64,000 nucleotides of DNA from an uncultured Spirochaetota bacterium. GTDB lineage: Bacteria; Spirochaetota; Spirochaetia; SZUA-6; Fen-1364. The notes under the pieces were generated by a model that did no database searches, was not told the DNA's origin, and saw only the letters and a program-made list of their open reading frames with translations. Positions within the stretch are counted from its first letter, which is position 1; every line of letters starts with the position of its first letter. The stretch spans positions 2,528,001 to 2,592,000 of the forward strand of contig CAWGAA010000001.1 of assembly GCA_963820525.1 (NCBI GenBank), in the 5' to 3' direction. Both the position numbers and the translations under genes were made by a program. Shown in pieces: positions 30,386-38,154 of the stretch.

Positions 30386-31066
30386 TTACGCCGCCGCGAC
30401 CGCCCATCCAGAATCCAGGCCGGCCGGCCCGTCCGGCGGGATCTCGGAGACTATCGAGAGCCGCCATGGGTGAGGTTCCTCCTCGAGGCTGCGCCGCTTT
30501 GCCTTGGGTACCTTGCGGTACAAAAGGAGAAACATGCCGTAGACGAACAGCGTCTGAAGCACTCCAAGGGCGGCTATCGCCACCGGGTCGCGCAGCCGTG
30601 CCATGGCCACGATGCTCACGGCGGAGCCGGCAAAGGAGCCGAAGGCGTCCGCCATCGCGTAGCGGCGGTCGAAGGCGGCCCGGTTCCTGCGGTACTTCAC
30701 CTCCTTGATCTTCTGCATGAGGAAAACCACAGAGGCTGAGAACACCCCCATGATGAACATCGTGAGAAGGTAGTAGGCCATCAGGTCCACCGCGGCAAGA
30801 ACTGCGGATGCCGTTGTGACGGCGAGCTCGGCGACCATGAGCGCCGGCAGGACGGCGTAGAGCCTGCCGAAGAGCTTCCGGTTTCCGAGCATGGCGCCGA
30901 TGAGCACGGGAAAGGCCGATGACATGAACGAACCCAACGCGATGATGCGGCCGTCGAGACGCGAAAGGATGACGCTCACGTACAGAGGATTGAGAAAACC
31001 GTAAAAGAAACTGGCGATGAAGCCGCTGAGAACGAAGACGTCGAGGTAATGCTGTAATTTCTTCAT
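30386..31066 (-). CDS. Half-size (about 6 TM) MFS-like membrane protein
   Basis: Six hydrophobic segments with MFS-like N-domain pattern; AGGAGGTG SD before ATG 31066. Confidence 0.7.
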   Translation of the reverse strand: MKKLQHYLDVFVLSGFIASFFYGFLNPLYVSVILSRLDGRIIALGSFMSSAFPVLIGAMLGNRKLFGRLYAVLPALMVAELAVTTASAVLAAVDLMAYYLLTMFIMGVFSASVVFLMQKIKEVKYRRNRAAFDRRYAMADAFGSFAGSAVSIVAMARLRDPVAIAALGVLQTLFVYGMFLLLYRKVPKAKRRSLEEEPHPWRLSIVSEIPPDGPAGLDSGWAVAAA

Positions 31067-31229
31067 TTCCCACCTCCTGCGCGTGGACGGGACACGCATA
31101 GGAGATGGAAGAGACATCCCCTATGCCCTAAGCGAAGCTGTTACTCCCAGGATCTTCGGAATGATCCATTTTCCCTCCCCCTTTGAAAAAGGGCATAACG
31201 TACGGCTCCCAAATGCCGAGCCGCGGGAC
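31067..31229 (-). promoter_or_regulatory. Putative translational attenuator (structured 5' leader)
   Basis: Mutually exclusive helices: UAUGCCCU/AGGGCAUA; GCAUAGGGGAUG/CAUCUCCUAUGC; UUCCAUCUCCU pairing with the SD region AGGAGGUGGGA. Confidence 0.7.
31128..31169 (-). CDS. Putative leader peptide MDHSEDPGSNSFA
   Basis: GGAGG SD 4 nt before ATG; stop TAG abuts the anti-anti-SD helix. Confidence 0.55.
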   Translation of the reverse strand: MDHSEDPGSNSFA

Positions 31230-32014: not shown

Positions 32015-32805
32015 TCCGCTCTCGCAGCGATCCGATAGTAGAGCCGGCGAGGCAGGAGGCTGACGAGCCGCAAAAGGATCCGGTTCAGGAGGCCGGGAAT
32101 GCAGACGGCCTTTCCCCTCTTCAAGGCCTTCAGGGAGGCATCGACCACCTCGTCCGCTTCCATCCACCGCAGAAGCCCCCGGTTGGGCTGCCTTCCCTTC
32201 ATCCCCAGCTTGTTGTGGAAATCGGTGTGGGTAAATCCCGGACAGAGGCTCTGCACTCTCACCCCGTTCTGCGCCACCGTCATGTGCATCGATTCGCTGA
32301 AAGAATTGAGGAAAGATTTCGTCGCCGAATAGAGCCCGCTCCCGGGCAGCGGCAGAAAGGCGGCCATCGAGGCGACATTGATGATCGTCCCCTTCCGCCG
32401 CTTGATCATCGGGGGGAGGACCGTTTTCATCAGCCTCACGGGGGCCAGAACATGGACCTGCATCATTGCCAGCCCTTCCGCGATGTCCCCTTCGAGGAAG
32501 CCGTCCCGCGCCCCGAAGCCCGCGTTGTTGACGAGGACCTCGATGTCGGTGCGCCCGCGCGCCGCCTCGATCACCTTCAGGAGGTCTCTCTCCCTGGCGA
32601 ACTCCGCGATGATGGGCCTGACCTCCACGCCGTGCGCCTTCTTCAGCGCCGAGGTGACCTTGCGAATCTCCCCGGCCCTTCTGCCCGTGATGATCAGGTT
32701 GTAGCCCAGCCTCGCGAAGCGCTCCGCGAAAGCCTTCCCGATCCCGCTCGTCGCTCCCGTGATCAAGGCGCTCGGCGAAGCGCCACCTTTCATAATGGCG
32801 TTCAT
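32011..32805 (-). CDS. Short-chain dehydrogenase/reductase
   Basis: TGATSGIG, NNAG, YSATK; TATAAT upstream (alternative start 32793). Confidence 0.92.
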   Translation of the reverse strand: MNAIMKGGASPSALITGATSGIGKAFAERFARLGYNLIITGRRAGEIRKVTSALKKAHGVEVRPIIAEFARERDLLKVIEAARGRTDIEVLVNNAGFGARDGFLEGDIAEGLAMMQVHVLAPVRLMKTVLPPMIKRRKGTIINVASMAAFLPLPGSGLYSATKSFLNSFSESMHMTVAQNGVRVQSLCPGFTHTDFHNKLGMKGRQPNRGLLRWMEADEVVDASLKALKRGKAVCIPGLLNRILLRLVSLLPRRLYYRIAARAE

Positions 32806-32848
32806 TCCTCTATTATTATACTGAAAGCTGAATCGAATCGAGAAGCAG

Positions 32849-33853
32849 GTGGAATGCAAAAGAACGGCGGCGCGCGCCGCAGGGCGGGAAAAATTGGCGC
32901 TCCTCGGGAGGGCGGAGCTCTTCTCCACGCTGGACGAGGAGGAGATCGCGATCATCGCGAGATACAGCGGATACCATTCCTTCGACGCGGGCCAGGTGAT
33001 CTTCTCCGAGGGCAGCCAGGTTGAGGAGTTGTACCTCATCAAATCGGGGACCGTGGTTATCCGCAAGAAGACCGAAGGCGGAGAGGATAACGACATAGCG
33101 CGATTCCTCGAAGGAGAGCTGTTCGGGGAGATGGACCTTCTGGACACCACTCCTCGTGACGCCTCCGCCATCGCGGAAACCCCCACGAACCTCCTCATCT
33201 TTCCCCGGCGCGGGTTGCTCTTTCCCAACATCCTTGAACGGCACCCCAACATCTTCGCCCGTATCCTCCAGAAGCTCCTGGGCATCGTCGCCGGAAGGAT
33301 TCGCGCAACCGACAGGCTCATCTCGGAGAAGACCCCGTGGATACAGGAGCTGAAGAGACAGCTCTTGCGGGACAAGCTCACCAGCCTCCATAACAAGGCC
33401 TACCTCGAGGAGGAGCTTCCGAGGATCCTCGCCAAAATCCCGCAGACGAGCTTCCTCGTGGTGAAGCCGGACAACTTCAAGACGATAAACGACGTCCATG
33501 GGCACGATGCCGGCGACAAAGCCCTGGTCCTCATCGCGGAAACCCTGAAATCCGGCTTGAAGGATGCGGACATCGCGGTCCGCTACAGGGGGGACGAGTT
33601 TTGCATCATCCTGAACGGCAGGCCGTGCAATGAGGCGGTGCGGATAGCCGCTGATCTCCTCGTCGTCTATAAGGGTATTGACGTCACGCCTCTCATTGCC
33701 GGCGAGCGGCTTACCCTCACCGCCAGCATCGGAGTTTCCAGCTTCCCCGACCTCGCCAGGGACGCGGCCTCCCTCGTGTCCAACGCTTTCGAAGCGATGA
33801 TGGAAGCGAGAAACTCCGGGGGAGACGGTTTTCGCGTCAGGGGGGGAGCATGA
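32849..33853 (+). CDS. cNMP-binding + degenerate GGDEF (RGDEF) protein
   Basis: Phosphate-binding cassette FGEM...PRDASA; KPDNFKTINDVHGHDAGD; RYRGDEF. Confidence 0.9.
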   Translation: MECKRTAARAAGREKLALLGRAELFSTLDEEEIAIIARYSGYHSFDAGQVIFSEGSQVEELYLIKSGTVVIRKKTEGGEDNDIARFLEGELFGEMDLLDTTPRDASAIAETPTNLLIFPRRGLLFPNILERHPNIFARILQKLLGIVAGRIRATDRLISEKTPWIQELKRQLLRDKLTSLHNKAYLEEELPRILAKIPQTSFLVVKPDNFKTINDVHGHDAGDKALVLIAETLKSGLKDADIAVRYRGDEFCIILNGRPCNEAVRIAADLLVVYKGIDVTPLIAGERLTLTASIGVSSFPDLARDAASLVSNAFEAMMEARNSGGDGFRVRGGA

Positions 33854-34821
33854 GGGAGATTGCGGTATTGGAAAAGGCCGCCATCTTCTCACTCCTGGAA
33901 CGCCGAGAGCTCGGCGAGCTGGCCGAGCACCTGGCCACGGTGACCCTGCACGATGGGGAGATACTTTTTCTGGAGGGAGACGAGGGCAACGACCTGTATA
34001 TCGTGAAGAACGGGAAGGTCAGCGTCGGCATCCGGCTTCCCGACGGAACGGATCACGAGATCACGCGCTTTTCCGCGGGAGATTTCTTCGGGGATATGTC
34101 GATTTTCGACAATGCTCCCCGCTCGGCCACATGCAGGGCGGTGGAGGAGACCTCGCTGTACAGCCTGTCGAAAGCCGCTTTCTCCGACATCATCAGGGAT
34201 CACCCCCGCATCGCCCTGAAGCTCATGTACCGGATGCTCAACGTCACGACGCAGCGCCTGCGCAACACGAGCGAGCTGGTCTCTGACATGGTGATCTGGG
34301 GTGAAAGCGCTCGCAAGCGCGCGGTCACCGACGAGCTCACCGGCGTCTACAACAGGCGATTCCTGGAAGACTCTCTGGGAAACTACATGGCCGAAGCCCG
34401 GGAGAAAGGGGAAGCGCTCTCCCTCATCATTGTCGACCTCGATTATTTCCGCCGCATCAATGAGCGCTATGGAAACGCAAAGGGCGACGAGGCCATCCGG
34501 GAGGCGACGCGCCTTTTCACGCGATTCCTCCGGCAGCGGGACGTCGTTGCCCGCTACGGCGGGGACGAGTTCATGATCCTCCTGCCCGGCGCGGTATCCA
34601 CGGAGGCGATGGCCGTCGCCTCTGCGATCTGCGCCGAGGTTTCGACCCTCAGCATCGCCGCGGGAGCCGACGGAGCGACCATCGGGGTTACGGTGAGCAT
34701 GGGCATCGCCTCCTATCCGCAGCACGCGGGAGACCTTCCGTCGCTTCGAAGCGCGGCGGATGCGGCGCTGTACAGGGCCAAGGAGGGCGGGCGCAACCGC
34801 GTTCTGTGCGCGGAAGGCTGA
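33850..34821 (+). CDS. cNMP-binding + GGDEF protein
   Basis: FGDM...PRSAT; DELTGVYNRR; DLDYFRRINERYGNAKGD; RQRD I-site; RYGGDEF; ADAALYRAKEGGRN; ATGA coupling. Confidence 0.92.
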   Translation: MREIAVLEKAAIFSLLERRELGELAEHLATVTLHDGEILFLEGDEGNDLYIVKNGKVSVGIRLPDGTDHEITRFSAGDFFGDMSIFDNAPRSATCRAVEETSLYSLSKAAFSDIIRDHPRIALKLMYRMLNVTTQRLRNTSELVSDMVIWGESARKRAVTDELTGVYNRRFLEDSLGNYMAEAREKGEALSLIIVDLDYFRRINERYGNAKGDEAIREATRLFTRFLRQRDVVARYGGDEFMILLPGAVSTEAMAVASAICAEVSTLSIAAGADGATIGVTVSMGIASYPQHAGDLPSLRSAADAALYRAKEGGRNRVLCAEG

Positions 34822-34855: not shown

Positions 34856-36013
34856 ATGAGCAAGACGGGGATCGCGCGGATTGGGGAGAAAAACAGAGTC
34901 ATCGCCAATATCATCGAGGCAATCGACACGCGATGGCACTTCCTCATGCTCGGCCATACCAGCCCCGACGACGACTGCATCGCTTCCATGATCTCCTTCG
35001 CTCTGATTCTTCGCATGTTCGACAAGGAGGCGATGATCCACCTCGACGGCCGCGTCCACGATCACTTCAGCTACCTCCTGGACATCTGCTCCTACAACTC
35101 CATCCGCGTCACCTACACGGGCTCCCCTCTGCCTTCACCGATCGACACGATCGTCCTCTGCGACACTCCCAAGCCTTCGATGATCGGCGTGACGCCGGGC
35201 GAAGGCGGACGGCTGGCAGACCCCGCCCTCCTCCGCATCGAGATCGACCACCATCTGGGCGCTGACAGCAACTACTTCGGAGACGACGGCTACAGGCTGG
35301 TGAGCGAGGCATCCTCGGCGAGTGAGCTCGTCGGTCACCTGCTGTTGAAGCTGCGCGACCGCAGGGACCTCTTGGAGAGATACCAGATCGCCGAGGTTCT
35401 CCCGCGCAACCTCGTCTTGACCATTCTTACCGGAATCATCGGCGATTCCAACATGGGTCAGTTCCTCAAATCCCGCCGGGAGAGAAGGTACTACGAGATC
35501 TTCAGCGGCATGTTCAATGATCTGCTGGCGAAAACGACCACCAAGAGGTCGAACTTCTTCACCAAGGACCAGGTGCACGACGAGCTTCAGAGGCTCTCAT
35601 CGTGCGAGGTGGCCTGCTTCCGTTTCATGATGGACAGGAAGCGCTTCTCCTCTTCCGTCGGCTACGTGGCACTTTCCCAGGAATCGACGGCCGCAATGCA
35701 CGAGTCCTTCGACGCGGAGACGATCGTCTCCACCGCGCGCCTCGTGGCGGATCACCTGGCGGAGGAGAGCGCGCGCGTCAGCCTTGTGGCGTTCTACGAT
35801 GCGCCGGAAAAAGGCGACCTCATCCAGTTTCGCGTCCGCAGGGCGGGTGCCTACAAGGGCTACGACCTTCGAAAGCTCATTGGGCTTTTCTCGATCGCAA
35901 ACGGAGGAGGCCACGAGGGGGCCATCGCTTTCCGCGTGCCTCGGGATCAGGTGCCGGACTTCGACGGCTATATCGCGGGGATCGTTTCGGGAATCGAAGC
36001 GGCGCTGGCCTAA
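34856..36013 (+). CDS. DHH/DHHA1 phosphoesterase (NrnA/Pde2-like)
   Basis: GHTSPDDD, CDT, IDHH, GIIGDS, GGGH motifs. Confidence 0.88.
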   Translation: MSKTGIARIGEKNRVIANIIEAIDTRWHFLMLGHTSPDDDCIASMISFALILRMFDKEAMIHLDGRVHDHFSYLLDICSYNSIRVTYTGSPLPSPIDTIVLCDTPKPSMIGVTPGEGGRLADPALLRIEIDHHLGADSNYFGDDGYRLVSEASSASELVGHLLLKLRDRRDLLERYQIAEVLPRNLVLTILTGIIGDSNMGQFLKSRRERRYYEIFSGMFNDLLAKTTTKRSNFFTKDQVHDELQRLSSCEVACFRFMMDRKRFSSSVGYVALSQESTAAMHESFDAETIVSTARLVADHLAEESARVSLVAFYDAPEKGDLIQFRVRRAGAYKGYDLRKLIGLFSIANGGGHEGAIAFRVPRDQVPDFDGYIAGIVSGIEAALA

Positions 36014-36015
36014 AG

Positions 36016-38154
36016 TCACTTCACCGCGAGGGCGAAGACCCCATCCCAGTTCCTGCCCGGCGGGTTCGTCTTGAAAAGGGCGATGCGCCGGAGAAAGATC
36101 TCGCTTGTCTCGTCCTTGAACTTCTCATGGAGGAACACGAAGGCCTTCTCCGCGGCCTGCCACTTCTGGTTTCTGTACAGCTCCAGCCCCTCCTCGAAGA
36201 TCTTCTTGATGTTATGGAGCTTTTCGGAGGCCAGCTTTTTGGACTGGAGGAGCTCGAATATCCTCACCGGTTTGGTCTTGCCCTTCACGGTGAGCATGTC
36301 GATCTCCCGGCAGAGGTAGCTCTCCTTCACCTTATCGAATACCGCCTCCGTGATCAGGGTCTTGGTTCCGTAGGTCTTGTTGGCCCCTTCCAGGCGGGCG
36401 GCGAGGTTCACCGTGTCGCCGATGCTGGTGAAATCCATGCGGTTCTTCGCGCCGACGCTGCCGAAGACGACGGGTCCCGTGTTGATCCCGATCCCGATGG
36501 ACACCACGTTCCGCTTGGCGAGCCGCGCGATCTCCCGCTCCTCCGCCATGCTCTTTCGGATTTCGAGGCTGGTCTTGCAGGCATTGAGCTCTTTGCGCGC
36601 CCCCTCGTACATCGCCATCACCTCGTCACCGACGAACTTGTCCACGTCTCCGCTGTTGGCAAAGATCACCGAGGATTGGATATCGAGGAAGTGGTTGAGC
36701 ATTTCCACCACCTTGTCCGGCTTCATCCCCTCGCAGAGGGTGGTGAAGCCCCGGATGTCGGTGAACAGGAACGTGAGGTCCCGCTTTTCCGTCGACGGCG
36801 TTTCGCGCTCGGAGTGTTTCAGCGTGGAAGCCGAGATGTAAGGAACGATCCCCCGGATCACCGTTGTCATGTTGCCGATCTCCGTGGAGAGGCTCTTGAT
36901 CTCATCCCGGGTGGCCACCCTGTCCCGGTATTGAAGGAGCTCCGAGGAGATCTTCAGCTTGCCCTTCACCATCCCGGCCAGAACGTTGGAGATGGAGTTC
37001 ACGCTCATGCGCAGGAAAAGGATGGGAAACACGATGGACCTGCCGGATACGTAGATCAGGAATACCGCGAGGTACACGAAGATGGCGGCGATGGCGAACA
37101 CCTTTACCTGCGTCCTGAAGAACTGCTCGTAGATGTCGTCCCGCGCGTAGTCGACCATGACGAATCCAAGAAACTTGGTGGCGAGGGTGACGGGGGCGAG
37201 AAACTCGTAGACGTCGTGCGACGGCTCGTAGCGCATGATCGTTTCGCTGAAGGGGGCGGTGGGCCGCTCCAGCTTCGTGCCGACCAGCACGCGGTCCGTG
37301 CTCGCCGCGACCGTGAAGACCTCGCCCCGGGGCTCCCGCTGGAAGAAGGACATGGTCTTGAAGCGCAAGGAGGAAACGAGATTCTTCTTGGCCTCGATGG
37401 AGAGATAGTCGTCGGCCCCTATCATGTCGCTGGGGTTCGCCTTGATCACGCTCGCCGTCCTGTCGGCGAGGTTCTTGCCGTCCTGGATCACGAACCCCAT
37501 GATCGTGTTGCTGAAGTTCTGCATCAGCACGAAGCTCAGCACGACGATGATGACGAGTATCAGGGGAACGAAGGAGAGGATCAGACGCTTCTGGATTCCC
37601 TGGCGCAGGAGAACCCGGAACAATCCCCGCGGTTTCTGCTCGGCGCTCCTTCGAAACTCGAGGTACTCCTGGTAGGTGGGGTTTCGCGTGCTGATGCTCG
37701 TGACCAGGAAATACAGAAAGTACGCGTTATATGCCAGGGAAGCGAAGAGCACTCCGTAGAGGATCGGCGAAGAGGCCATGAAGTAGCCGGTGCTTCGGGC
37801 ATTGACCACGATATGAGCGGCGATGATGCCCAGCACGATCCCCGAGCAGATGATGTTCAAAAGAATCGGCACAAGCCGGAGGGGCGACGTCAAAGCGGGG
37901 ATCCGCCGCTCGAGGAAGGAGGCGGAGAGCTTGAACAGACAGATCAGGGGGATCAGGAAGACGAGGAACCCCGAGACGATGAGAGGGACGAGCTTTTCCG
38001 CGGGACCTCCGAACAGCTGCAGGGGCATGTCGGGGGCGGAGAAAAGCCCTTCGAAGGTGATGAAAAGCGGGAGGAAAAACCACGCCAGGATTCCAAGGGA
38101 ATAAAGACTCTCCACCACGTGGAGAACGATCGAGATCCGTTCTTTGCGGCCCAT
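36016..38154 (-). CDS. Membrane-bound class III adenylate cyclase (multi-TM, Cache-like domain, HAMP, cyclase, TPR-like tail)
   Basis: FTDIRGFT, VDKFVGD, FTSIGDTVNLAARLEG. Confidence 0.92.
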   Translation of the reverse strand: MGRKERISIVLHVVESLYSLGILAWFFLPLFITFEGLFSAPDMPLQLFGGPAEKLVPLIVSGFLVFLIPLICLFKLSASFLERRIPALTSPLRLVPILLNIICSGIVLGIIAAHIVVNARSTGYFMASSPILYGVLFASLAYNAYFLYFLVTSISTRNPTYQEYLEFRRSAEQKPRGLFRVLLRQGIQKRLILSFVPLILVIIVVLSFVLMQNFSNTIMGFVIQDGKNLADRTASVIKANPSDMIGADDYLSIEAKKNLVSSLRFKTMSFFQREPRGEVFTVAASTDRVLVGTKLERPTAPFSETIMRYEPSHDVYEFLAPVTLATKFLGFVMVDYARDDIYEQFFRTQVKVFAIAAIFVYLAVFLIYVSGRSIVFPILFLRMSVNSISNVLAGMVKGKLKISSELLQYRDRVATRDEIKSLSTEIGNMTTVIRGIVPYISASTLKHSERETPSTEKRDLTFLFTDIRGFTTLCEGMKPDKVVEMLNHFLDIQSSVIFANSGDVDKFVGDEVMAMYEGARKELNACKTSLEIRKSMAEEREIARLAKRNVVSIGIGINTGPVVFGSVGAKNRMDFTSIGDTVNLAARLEGANKTYGTKTLITEAVFDKVKESYLCREIDMLTVKGKTKPVRIFELLQSKKLASEKLHNIKKIFEEGLELYRNQKWQAAEKAFVFLHEKFKDETSEIFLRRIALFKTNPPGRNWDGVFALAVK

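Follow-up and report, generated by a model that had tools for sequence, protein, structure and literature searches.

The locus described here raises the question of what two adjacent genes for the same kind of nucleotide-signalling protein do together when each departs from the canonical active site in a different place. Both genes lie in a 64,000-nucleotide stretch of DNA (the window) from an uncultured Spirochaetota bacterium (GenBank assembly GCA_963820525.1, contig CAWGAA010000001.1, positions 2,528,001 to 2,592,000), and their products are referred to below as P1 and P2. P1 is encoded on the plus strand at 32849..33853 from a GTG start (334 amino acids) and combines a cyclic nucleotide monophosphate (cNMP)-binding domain with a degenerate GGDEF domain, and P2, encoded on the same strand at 33850..34821 from an ATG start (323 amino acids), combines a cNMP-binding domain with a GGDEF domain carrying the full catalytic set. 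As read from the sequence, the stop codon of P1 and the start codon of P2 share the four bases ATGA at 33850..33853 (...gagcATGAggg...), with a purine-rich run, GGGGGAG, just 5' of the overlap. The strict co-occurrence of the two genes, their coupling, and their occasional fusion suggest that P1 and P2 would form a joint two-subunit second-messenger enzyme, and we favor, at about even confidence, the more specific reading that they are the subunits of an asymmetric, cyclic-nucleotide-sensing GGDEF enzyme with one catalytic center, in which P1 would hold the donor nucleotide.

The shared architecture is clear from the domain matches. In P1, the cNMP-binding domain spans residues 43-123 (32975..33217; Pfam, 71.6 bits; cassette FGE...PRDASA) and is followed by a GGDEF-fold domain without a metal site at residues 174-325 (33368..33823; 111.6 bits), and in P2, the corresponding domains occupy residues 31-118 (33940..34203; 87.2 bits; cassette FGD...PRSAT) and residues 158-317 (150 bits). 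Both GGDEF scores lie far above the curated cut-off of 23.8 bits for PF00990, the matches to TIGR00254 reach 115.6 bits for P1 and 163.6 bits for P2, and both N-terminal domains belong to PF00027 by profile and by the Gly-Glu...Arg-Ser/Thr-Ala cassette, from which binding of a cyclic nucleotide is predicted. None of the NCBIfam equivalog models reaches its cut-off for either protein. A full-length alignment of P1 and P2 gives 29% identity (E 1e-53). The preliminary description of this DNA had recorded two ATGA-coupled genes of the same cNMP and GGDEF architecture, together with a list of motifs retained or altered in each, and both the arrangement and every one of the motifs are borne out by the reading frames, the Pfam domains, and the translations.

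To place these motifs in the active site, P2 was numbered against PleD by HMMER alignment to PleD chains (D196 = D327, R201 = K332, N204 = N335, E205 = D336, N209 = H340, D213 = D344, R228/D231 = R359/D362, G237-F241 = G368-F372, K311 = K442, R315 = R446), and residue roles were taken from the accessible text of the papers cited here. Two Mg ions are held by D327, the backbone of I328, and E370, the guanine is bound by N335 and D344, the phosphates are bound by K442, R446, and the backbone of residues 330-332, and K332 has been termed a transition-state stabilizer (PMC12943098). The proposed general base, which takes the proton from the 3'-OH of the GTP on the other monomer, is the fourth residue of the GGDEF motif. 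The Arg of the NRR motif, which 94% of predicted cyclases have and which Hypr enzymes replace, stacks against the base held in the opposite site (PMC6456294). When (p)ppGpp is bound to PleD, the side chain of K332 binds the beta-phosphate and H340 lies by the 3' substituent; R300 and Y439 extend across from the opposite domain, and both R300A and R300K lower activity (bioRxiv 10.1101/2025.08.22.671821). Against this scheme, direct reading of P1 gives K206-P207-D208 at 33464..33472, with Lys replacing the metal-binding Asp (D327), and RGDEF (R247-F251) at 33587..33601 in place of GGDEF; its full set of motifs is VVKPDNFKTINDVHGHDAGD, RYRGDEF, NKA, and AFEAMMEARNSGGD. The motifs of P2 are VDLDYFRRINERYGNAKGD, RQRD, RYGGDEF, NRR, and AADAALYRAKEGGRN. 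Its metal strand, D196-L-D198, leads into the altered helix FRRINERYGNAKGD (34435..34488), as seen in the sequence, the PleD alignment, and the residue table described below; RQRD (34531..34542) stands five residues ahead of GGDEF, with the spacing of an I-site, and the GGDEF loop itself (G237-F241; 34558..34572) is invariant in the P2-type alignment.

The residue table covers 59 P1 and 58 P2 sequences from Spirochaetota, from which pieces shorter than 300 amino acids and the frame-broken P2 sequences of three loci (L014, L015, and L020) were dropped. On the draft contigs of metagenome-assembled genomes (MAGs) that carry L014 and L020, the P2 orthologue runs across two reading frames and the P1 orthologue of L020 is also shortened, as the result of frameshifts or assembly errors. 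Across the table, the position of the metal ligand D327 is Lys in 59/59 P1 and Asp in 58/58 P2 sequences. P1 never has Gly at position 368 (R48, Q4, M3, K2, T1, A1), has D39/N20 at position 370, and has largely lost the phosphate clamps (Arg in 51/59 at K442 and Gly in 58/59 at R446), and P2 has Gly368 in 57/58, Asp370 in 58/58, Lys442 in 57/58, and Arg446 in 54/58, with D329, G369, and E371 each kept in 58/58. The residues that reach across the interface follow the same division, as Arg300 is never found in P1 (A25, T20, S7, and others) and is found in 52/58 P2 sequences, and Tyr439 is found in 1/59 P1 and 57/58 P2 sequences. Conversely, the helix that carries the guanine contacts is kept in P1, with K332, D336, H340, D344, G339, and G343 each present in 59/59 and N335 in 58/59. 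P2 retains N335 in 57/58 and D344 in 53/58 (Asn in the other 5) and never has Lys at position 332 (R48, G9, T1), with position 336 mostly Glu (E42, K4, R4, D3, and others) and position 340 variable (H33, Q8, N5, A4, L3, T2, and others). By the published roles, P2 has the metal ligands (D196 and D239), the GGDEF loop, the clamps, and the guanine contacts of a cyclase and lacks only the Lys332 expected of an active diguanylate cyclase, which P1 has, whereas P1 keeps the guanine contacts and Lys332 without the metal ligands, a GG[DE]EF loop, or the clamps. P1 is not classed as a cyclase because its loop reads RGDEF and position 368 is never Gly in the 59 sequences. The RxxD of the I-site is present in P2 of the window as RQRD, in agreement with the I-site motif, and is partly kept in its clade (R 37/58, D 50/58), and P1 of the window has KDAD (clade R 17/59, D 38/59).

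It is clear from these counts that the reciprocal pattern noticed in the preliminary description is real and old rather than the product of chance decay, as it recurs in 59 P1-type and 58 P2-type sequences, but its details require some revision. Of the changes proposed for the P2 helix, K>R and D>E are features of the clade, and H>N is not conserved, His being the residue at position 340 in 33/58. In the homologous pairs, Lys at D327, the absence of Gly at 368, and the absence of Lys at 332 are co-conserved, and the GN change seen in the window is not. The losses in P1 are as described; P2, however, has lost no residue that the papers cited here call essential for binding the base or the metals, and "relaxed constraint" is a better term than complementary loss for its helix, because N335 and D344 are largely kept and K>R at position 332 is conservative.

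How unusual the P2 helix is can be judged from other GGDEF domains. A background of 20 GGDEF domains from other spirochaete genomes, picked solely as the best matches to the GGDEF domain of P2, has D327, K332, N335, D336, H340, and D344 in 20/20, with R300 variable. A search with P1 alone had returned 4 true relatives alongside 76 GGDEF genes unrelated to it, and the latter were not used, as they were chosen via patterns that contain FK..ND and are thus unfit as a background. Among the 12 other GGDEF domains of the source genome, K332, D336, and H340 are each present in 11, and the sole exception reads FR..NE, with both changes together. A 1373-residue open frame outside the window (G000:C1:1159184-1163302, plus strand) encodes a GGDEF domain with FRRTNE (K332R and D336E) and an intact GGDEF loop. 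It may be that the K332R and D336E changes compensate each other.

The two clades are under comparable constraint. Mean pairwise identity is 0.40 for the sensor, 0.49 for the linker, and 0.42 for the GGDEF part in P1, compared with 0.43, 0.58, and 0.47 in P2, so that conservation peaks in the linker in both, and 14 positions are invariant among 33 P1 sequences. Judged by its sequences, P1 is not decaying, and the constraint on it is of the same order as that on P2. The cNMP cassette is kept more strictly in P2 (G58, E51/D6, R57, S57, and A57 of 58) than in P1 (G59, E55, and R46 of 59), and the Glu>Asp change in the FGD cassette of P2 in the window is shared by just 6/58 P2 sequences. Position 162 of P2, which follows the Asp of DxLT, is acidic in 47/58 sequences, and the matching position of P1 is basic in 55/59, a pairing that could represent a hetero-specific salt bridge. 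A sub-branch of P1-type proteins that we call orphans (L140 in G228:C3, L142 in G123:C23, and P0010) carries Lys in place of the metal Asp and GG at the R446 position, yet reads RYGGDEF or RFHGDEF, and the Lys swap is on this account the older or more essential change compared with that at G368.

The genome surveys show that the two genes are inherited together. The nearest relatives of the source genome are Spirochaetia and Spirochaetota MAGs and a Treponema MAG. Among 41 genomes (40 relatives and the source genome), 37 have a P1 match at E <= 1e-20 with a P2-type match directly beside it, the four relatives without a P1 match being 77-97% complete. Both types are present at each of the 36 distinct loci (L002-L035, L038, and L039), in some cases cut or frame-broken. 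Linkage was tested by L002-L020, which were cut out around P1 alone and contain P2 in 19/19; L021-L035 and L116-L135 provide no such test because these regions were picked from tables that already showed both matches. When 200 Spirochaetota genomes were sampled evenly and the source genome was added, P1-type matches at E <= 1e-40 occurred in 48/201 (47 sampled genomes and the source genome), and full-length P2-type matches occurred in exactly the same 47 genomes and the source genome, with 14 further genomes in the P2 table having matches to the GGDEF domain only. No genome with one type alone was seen in this sample at the thresholds used. Two complete genomes of the same class (G105 and G125) also carry the pair. 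A search of 1.84 billion representative proteins returned just 203 at E <= 1e-30, and the best 150 of these 203, taken as clusters at 50% identity, comprise 108 with the P1 signature and without GGDEF, 3 with both, 17 with GG[DE]EF only, and 22 with neither.

The coupling seen in the window is also widespread. Stop and start codons overlap in 25 of the 49 unfused pairs elsewhere, by four bases in 20 (19 found by script and L003 by eye) and by one base (TGATG) in 5. In seven loci (L026 and L116-L121), P1 and P2 form a single open reading frame of 662-687 amino acids, and two more fused proteins, of 650 and 681 amino acids, are present among the library representatives. A quick maximum-likelihood tree of 109 rows places P1 and P2 on the two sides of one branch (Shimodaira-Hasegawa-like approximate likelihood ratio test support 100) with mirrored subclades, and the fused forms group as a single clade on the P1 side and again on the P2 side, which indicates a single fusion event. 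An AlphaFold2 model of a natural fusion, made from a 9-row alignment, has a mean predicted local distance difference test score (pLDDT) of 81.8 and a predicted template-modeling score of 0.48; the domains fold, their mutual arrangement is not resolved, and the linker helices are 41 and 40 residues long.

From the observed architecture, residue pattern, co-occurrence, coupling, and fusions, we infer how P1 and P2 might pair, which of them would provide the donor and which the acceptor nucleotide, what they might make, what the neighboring DHH protein described below might degrade, and how a cNMP might act. P1 and P2 would derive from one old duplication and be co-produced from their overlapping genes. 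Pairing would most likely occur via the linker helices of equal length, so as to leave one P1 GGDEF domain facing one P2 GGDEF domain, and such a pair would have a single catalytic center because only P2 has the metal ligands (D196 and D239), the GGDEF loop, and the clamps (K311 and R315). In P1, the invariant Lys stands in for the metal Asp and the clamps are lost, and the strictly conserved guanine pocket (N214 and D223, with K211, D215, and H219) remains. By the published residue roles, the elements that act in trans on a P1-bound nucleotide are all kept in P2, and the cis elements other than the metal site are kept in P1. The P1 pocket would thus be complete except for the metals, built from its own N335, D344, K332, and H340 equivalents and from the Glu, Arg, and Tyr of P2 reaching over, and the P2 pocket would have metals and clamps, relaxed residues beside the beta-phosphate and on the 3' side, and little contributed by P1 in trans. 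The guanine nucleotide held by P1 would have its 3'-OH activated across the interface by Glu240 of P2 and would attack the alpha-phosphate of the GTP bound to P2, and the reverse attack, by the P2 nucleotide on that of P1, would be impossible. Binding of cyclic AMP (cAMP) or cyclic GMP (cGMP) to the N-terminal domains would set the activity.

The product of such an enzyme could be cyclic di-GMP (c-di-GMP), made in two rounds at the single center, or linear pppGpG, a known intermediate of the reaction (PMC7825114). For the two-round route, pppGpG would rebind in the opposite orientation. The preliminary description had proposed that a heterodimer with one site might form only one phosphodiester bond and yield a linear dinucleotide. 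In single-site dinucleotide cyclases of the cGAS type, the intermediate rebinds reversed for the second round. By analogy with these enzymes, a linear product is possible and would not be implied by a single site, because one center could still yield c-di-GMP if pppGpG rebinds the other way round. The stronger proposal, in which the heterodimer makes one phosphodiester bond and releases a linear dinucleotide signal (pppGpG or a 5'-variant set by the metal-free Lys/Arg pocket of P1), with gating by cAMP or cGMP and with a dedicated hydrolase encoded next door, appears unlikely. That hydrolase would be the DHH/DHHA1 phosphodiesterase-like protein (385 amino acids) encoded on the plus strand at 34856..36013, a separate gene that begins 34 bases after P2. 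It matches Pfam DHH at 37 bits (cut-off 28.1), its IDHH and GGGH motifs are invariant in the alignment, and its model (pLDDT 80.6) has a two-domain fold closest to that of stand-alone DHH/DHHA1 dinucleotide phosphodiesterases, with top Foldseek matches to Thermotoga maritima TmPDE TM1595 (E 1.8e-15), Borrelia burgdorferi DhhP, NrnA/Pde2, and the catalytic domain of GdpP (5xt3/5xsi), extending to an E of ~1e-13, which together place it among the DHH/DHHA1 dinucleotide phosphodiesterases; no NCBIfam equivalog reaches its cut-off for this protein. This gene is either a linked neighbor of P2 or part of one reading frame with it. The fusion is found in sister genera: 17 of the 19 loci at family level (L002-L020) have P2 and the DHH protein in a single open frame, and at L037 such a frame was checked at full length, stop to stop, over 753 amino acids. 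Separate genes, as found in the window and in more distant genomes, are on that distribution probably the older state. The DHH/DHHA1 protein would remove the dinucleotide made by P1 and P2, and a hydrolase of this type fits a cyclic or a linear product alike.

Several observations weigh against the asymmetric enzyme. The Glu at the fourth position of GGDEF (E371) is kept in 56/59 P1 sequences, and a strict one-bond model would have no use for it. The only catalytic center, that of P2, has Arg (48) or Gly (9) in place of K332, and the Arg may or may not serve in place of the Lys. The absence of R300 and Y439 from P1 should weaken the P2 site, although the loss of R300 counts for little because this residue also varies in the 20 background domains. 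Two fused chains might also dimerize with P1 facing P1 and P2 facing P2. Linkage is also not universal: separate contigs carry P1 and P2 in G096 and, for one copy, in G228; the copies in G228 comprise a fused one, a P2 and DHH pair without P1, and an orphan P1-type gene; and G123 has an extra orphan of this type, with no P2 gene adjoining the orphans at L140 and L142. Finally, the counts given above take in related genomes that are not independent and thus overstate the number of evolutionary events.

The main rival holds that the P2 homodimer is the working cyclase and P1 a regulatory pseudoenzyme, which would titrate P2 into inactive heterodimers or report the level of GTP or cNMP. P2 does have every listed catalytic residue apart from K332, along with an RxxD site, and the intact guanine pocket of P1, the existence of orphan P1-type genes, and the precedent of GTP-sensing degenerate GGDEF domains in the accessible text of two papers (PMC12943098, PMC8846402) all suit this rival. 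What this account leaves unexplained is the P2 helix, in which K332 is gone from 58/58 and D336 and H340 are relaxed, compared with 20/20 kept in other spirochaete GGDEF domains, and also why P2 has kept all of the trans-acting residues while P1 has lost them. The 1:1 fusions and the exact co-occurrence are, in addition, better suited to a fixed complex than to a titrating inhibitor, and we regard regulation of a P2 homodimer by P1 as doubtful, though a serious competitor.

Two other accounts can be given of P1. It could be a receptor, taking up a finished signal (c-di-GMP, pGpG, or (p)ppGpp) in its metal-free pocket and relaying it to P2 or another partner. Receptors built on degenerate GGDEF domains are already known (PMC12943098), and (p)ppGpp binds in the active site of the PleD GGDEF domain via N335, D344, K332, R300, Y439, and R446 (bioRxiv 10.1101/2025.08.22.671821). 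Of these residues, however, P1 has lost R446 and Y439, which are used for pppGpp, and its RxxD is not conserved, so a receptor role seems distinctly improbable. It is less plausible by far that P1 and P2 act separately as mere neighbors, with P1 a decaying duplicate. Tandem duplicates are common, and the source genome has 15 GGDEF matches, but a mean pairwise identity in the GGDEF part close to that of P2, the 14 invariant positions, and the predominance of P1-type proteins among the best 150 clusters are not what decay would leave, and the coupling, co-occurrence, and fusion argue to the contrary.

Returning to the asymmetric enzyme, its components have precedents, and cNMP-GGDEF cyclases, degenerate GGDEF sensors, and the architecture of GdpP are already known. 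A close parallel in the accessible text is XC_0249 of Xanthomonas campestris, a cNMP-GGDEF diguanylate cyclase activated by cGMP (PMC3770947), which shares with P1 and P2 the order of domains, the control of c-di-GMP synthesis by a cyclic mononucleotide that we predict here, and an adjoining class III cyclase gene; it is, however, described as a single active protein rather than two co-inherited paralogues of which one lacks the metal site, and the class III cyclase beside P1 and P2 is not a conserved neighbor. GdpP/YybT, described in the available text as PAS, degenerate GGDEF, and DHH/DHHA1 (PMC12943098), likewise joins a GGDEF fold to a dinucleotide phosphodiesterase, much as P2 is fused to the DHH protein in sister genera, but its GGDEF domain is degenerate and it degrades c-di-AMP, whereas the fused P2 has the full catalytic set, a cNMP sensor, and a second, dead GGDEF protein beside it. 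The degenerate GGDEF domains of PdeA (CC_3396) and FimX are GTP sensors (PMC12943098, PMC8846402) and resemble P1 in keeping a nucleotide pocket without catalysis; from what these sources report, they regulate an EAL domain in the same chain, and P1 is partnered with an intact GGDEF paralogue. In the Hypr enzyme GacA, cross-dimer residues (the general-base Glu and the NRR Arg) decide the product, and the NRR Arg is replaced, as it is in P1, but the Hypr enzymes described there are homodimers with Ser at D344 (PMC6456294). A reading of P1 and P2 as a Hypr-type cyclic GMP-AMP synthase was considered and rejected, as this Ser is absent from both (P1 D59, P2 D53/N5).

A different kind of precedent comes from another enzyme class. 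Mammalian adenylyl cyclase (C1/C2) and soluble guanylyl cyclase (alpha/beta) are class III pseudo-heterodimers in which one site is catalytic and the other degenerate. They resemble P1 and P2 in bringing together homologous palm domains with a catalytic and a degenerate site, as two chains or as one fused chain, but each of their sites is formed by both domains and a single nucleotide is cyclized, whereas a GGDEF domain binds one entire nucleotide and two such domains link their nucleotides together. The textbook GGDEF cyclase is a symmetric homodimer, and no description of a GGDEF heterodimer or of the P1/P2 pair was found in the searched literature, whose coverage leaves out most subscription journals and supplements; within that literature, our results suggest that a live and dead GGDEF pair acting as a two-subunit enzyme is a kind not yet described for the family. 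If this is correct, a conserved heterodimer of this sort, present across the phylum as gene pairs and single-chain fusions, would bring the logic of adenylyl cyclase C1/C2 into c-di-GMP signaling. It would also allow a job to be assigned to the ultra-conserved K332, D336, and H340, because they are here separated from the metal site by nature. The cassette would join cAMP or cGMP sensing, dinucleotide synthesis, and a DHH/DHHA1 hydrolase, and with it comes the possibility of a linear dinucleotide as a true product instead of a by-product.

The remaining surroundings of the pair add context. Upstream of P1, a weak promoter-like site (TTCATA, a 16-nucleotide spacer, and TATTAT) lies on the plus strand at 32789..32816, with one such site found and 0.5 expected from shuffles, and a short-chain dehydrogenase gene is divergently encoded on the minus strand. 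Further upstream, the minus strand at 30389..31117 encodes a hydrophobic protein of 243 amino acids for which Pfam gave no match at E <= 0.001. A gene at 36016..38154 on the minus strand, convergent with the DHH gene, encodes a 712-residue membrane class III nucleotidyl cyclase. This cyclase was considered as a member of the cassette and rejected, as its orthologues are on contigs other than that of the pair in G013, G014, G015, and G019; class III cyclases have at least 8 matches in the source genome and 4-13 in its relatives. A defence-system reading was also rejected, as the PADLOC matches cover the cNMP domains of P1 and P2 alone (Pycsar effector models, 22-46 bits) and the DHH protein has no PADLOC match. 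The source genome (5.05 Mb) has an ordinary c-di-GMP network, with 1 EAL and 15 HD_5 matches alongside its GGDEF matches, and 6 DHH-family matches. It encodes 20 open reading frames with a cNMP domain, of which only P1 and P2 also have GGDEF. Outside the window, a frame of 352 amino acids on the minus strand (G000:C1:2929192-2930247) combines a cNMP domain (residues 18-134 by hidden Markov model) with HD_5/HD-GYP, and its product is a candidate cNMP-gated c-di-GMP phosphodiesterase, which would be the mirror image of a P1/P2 synthase.

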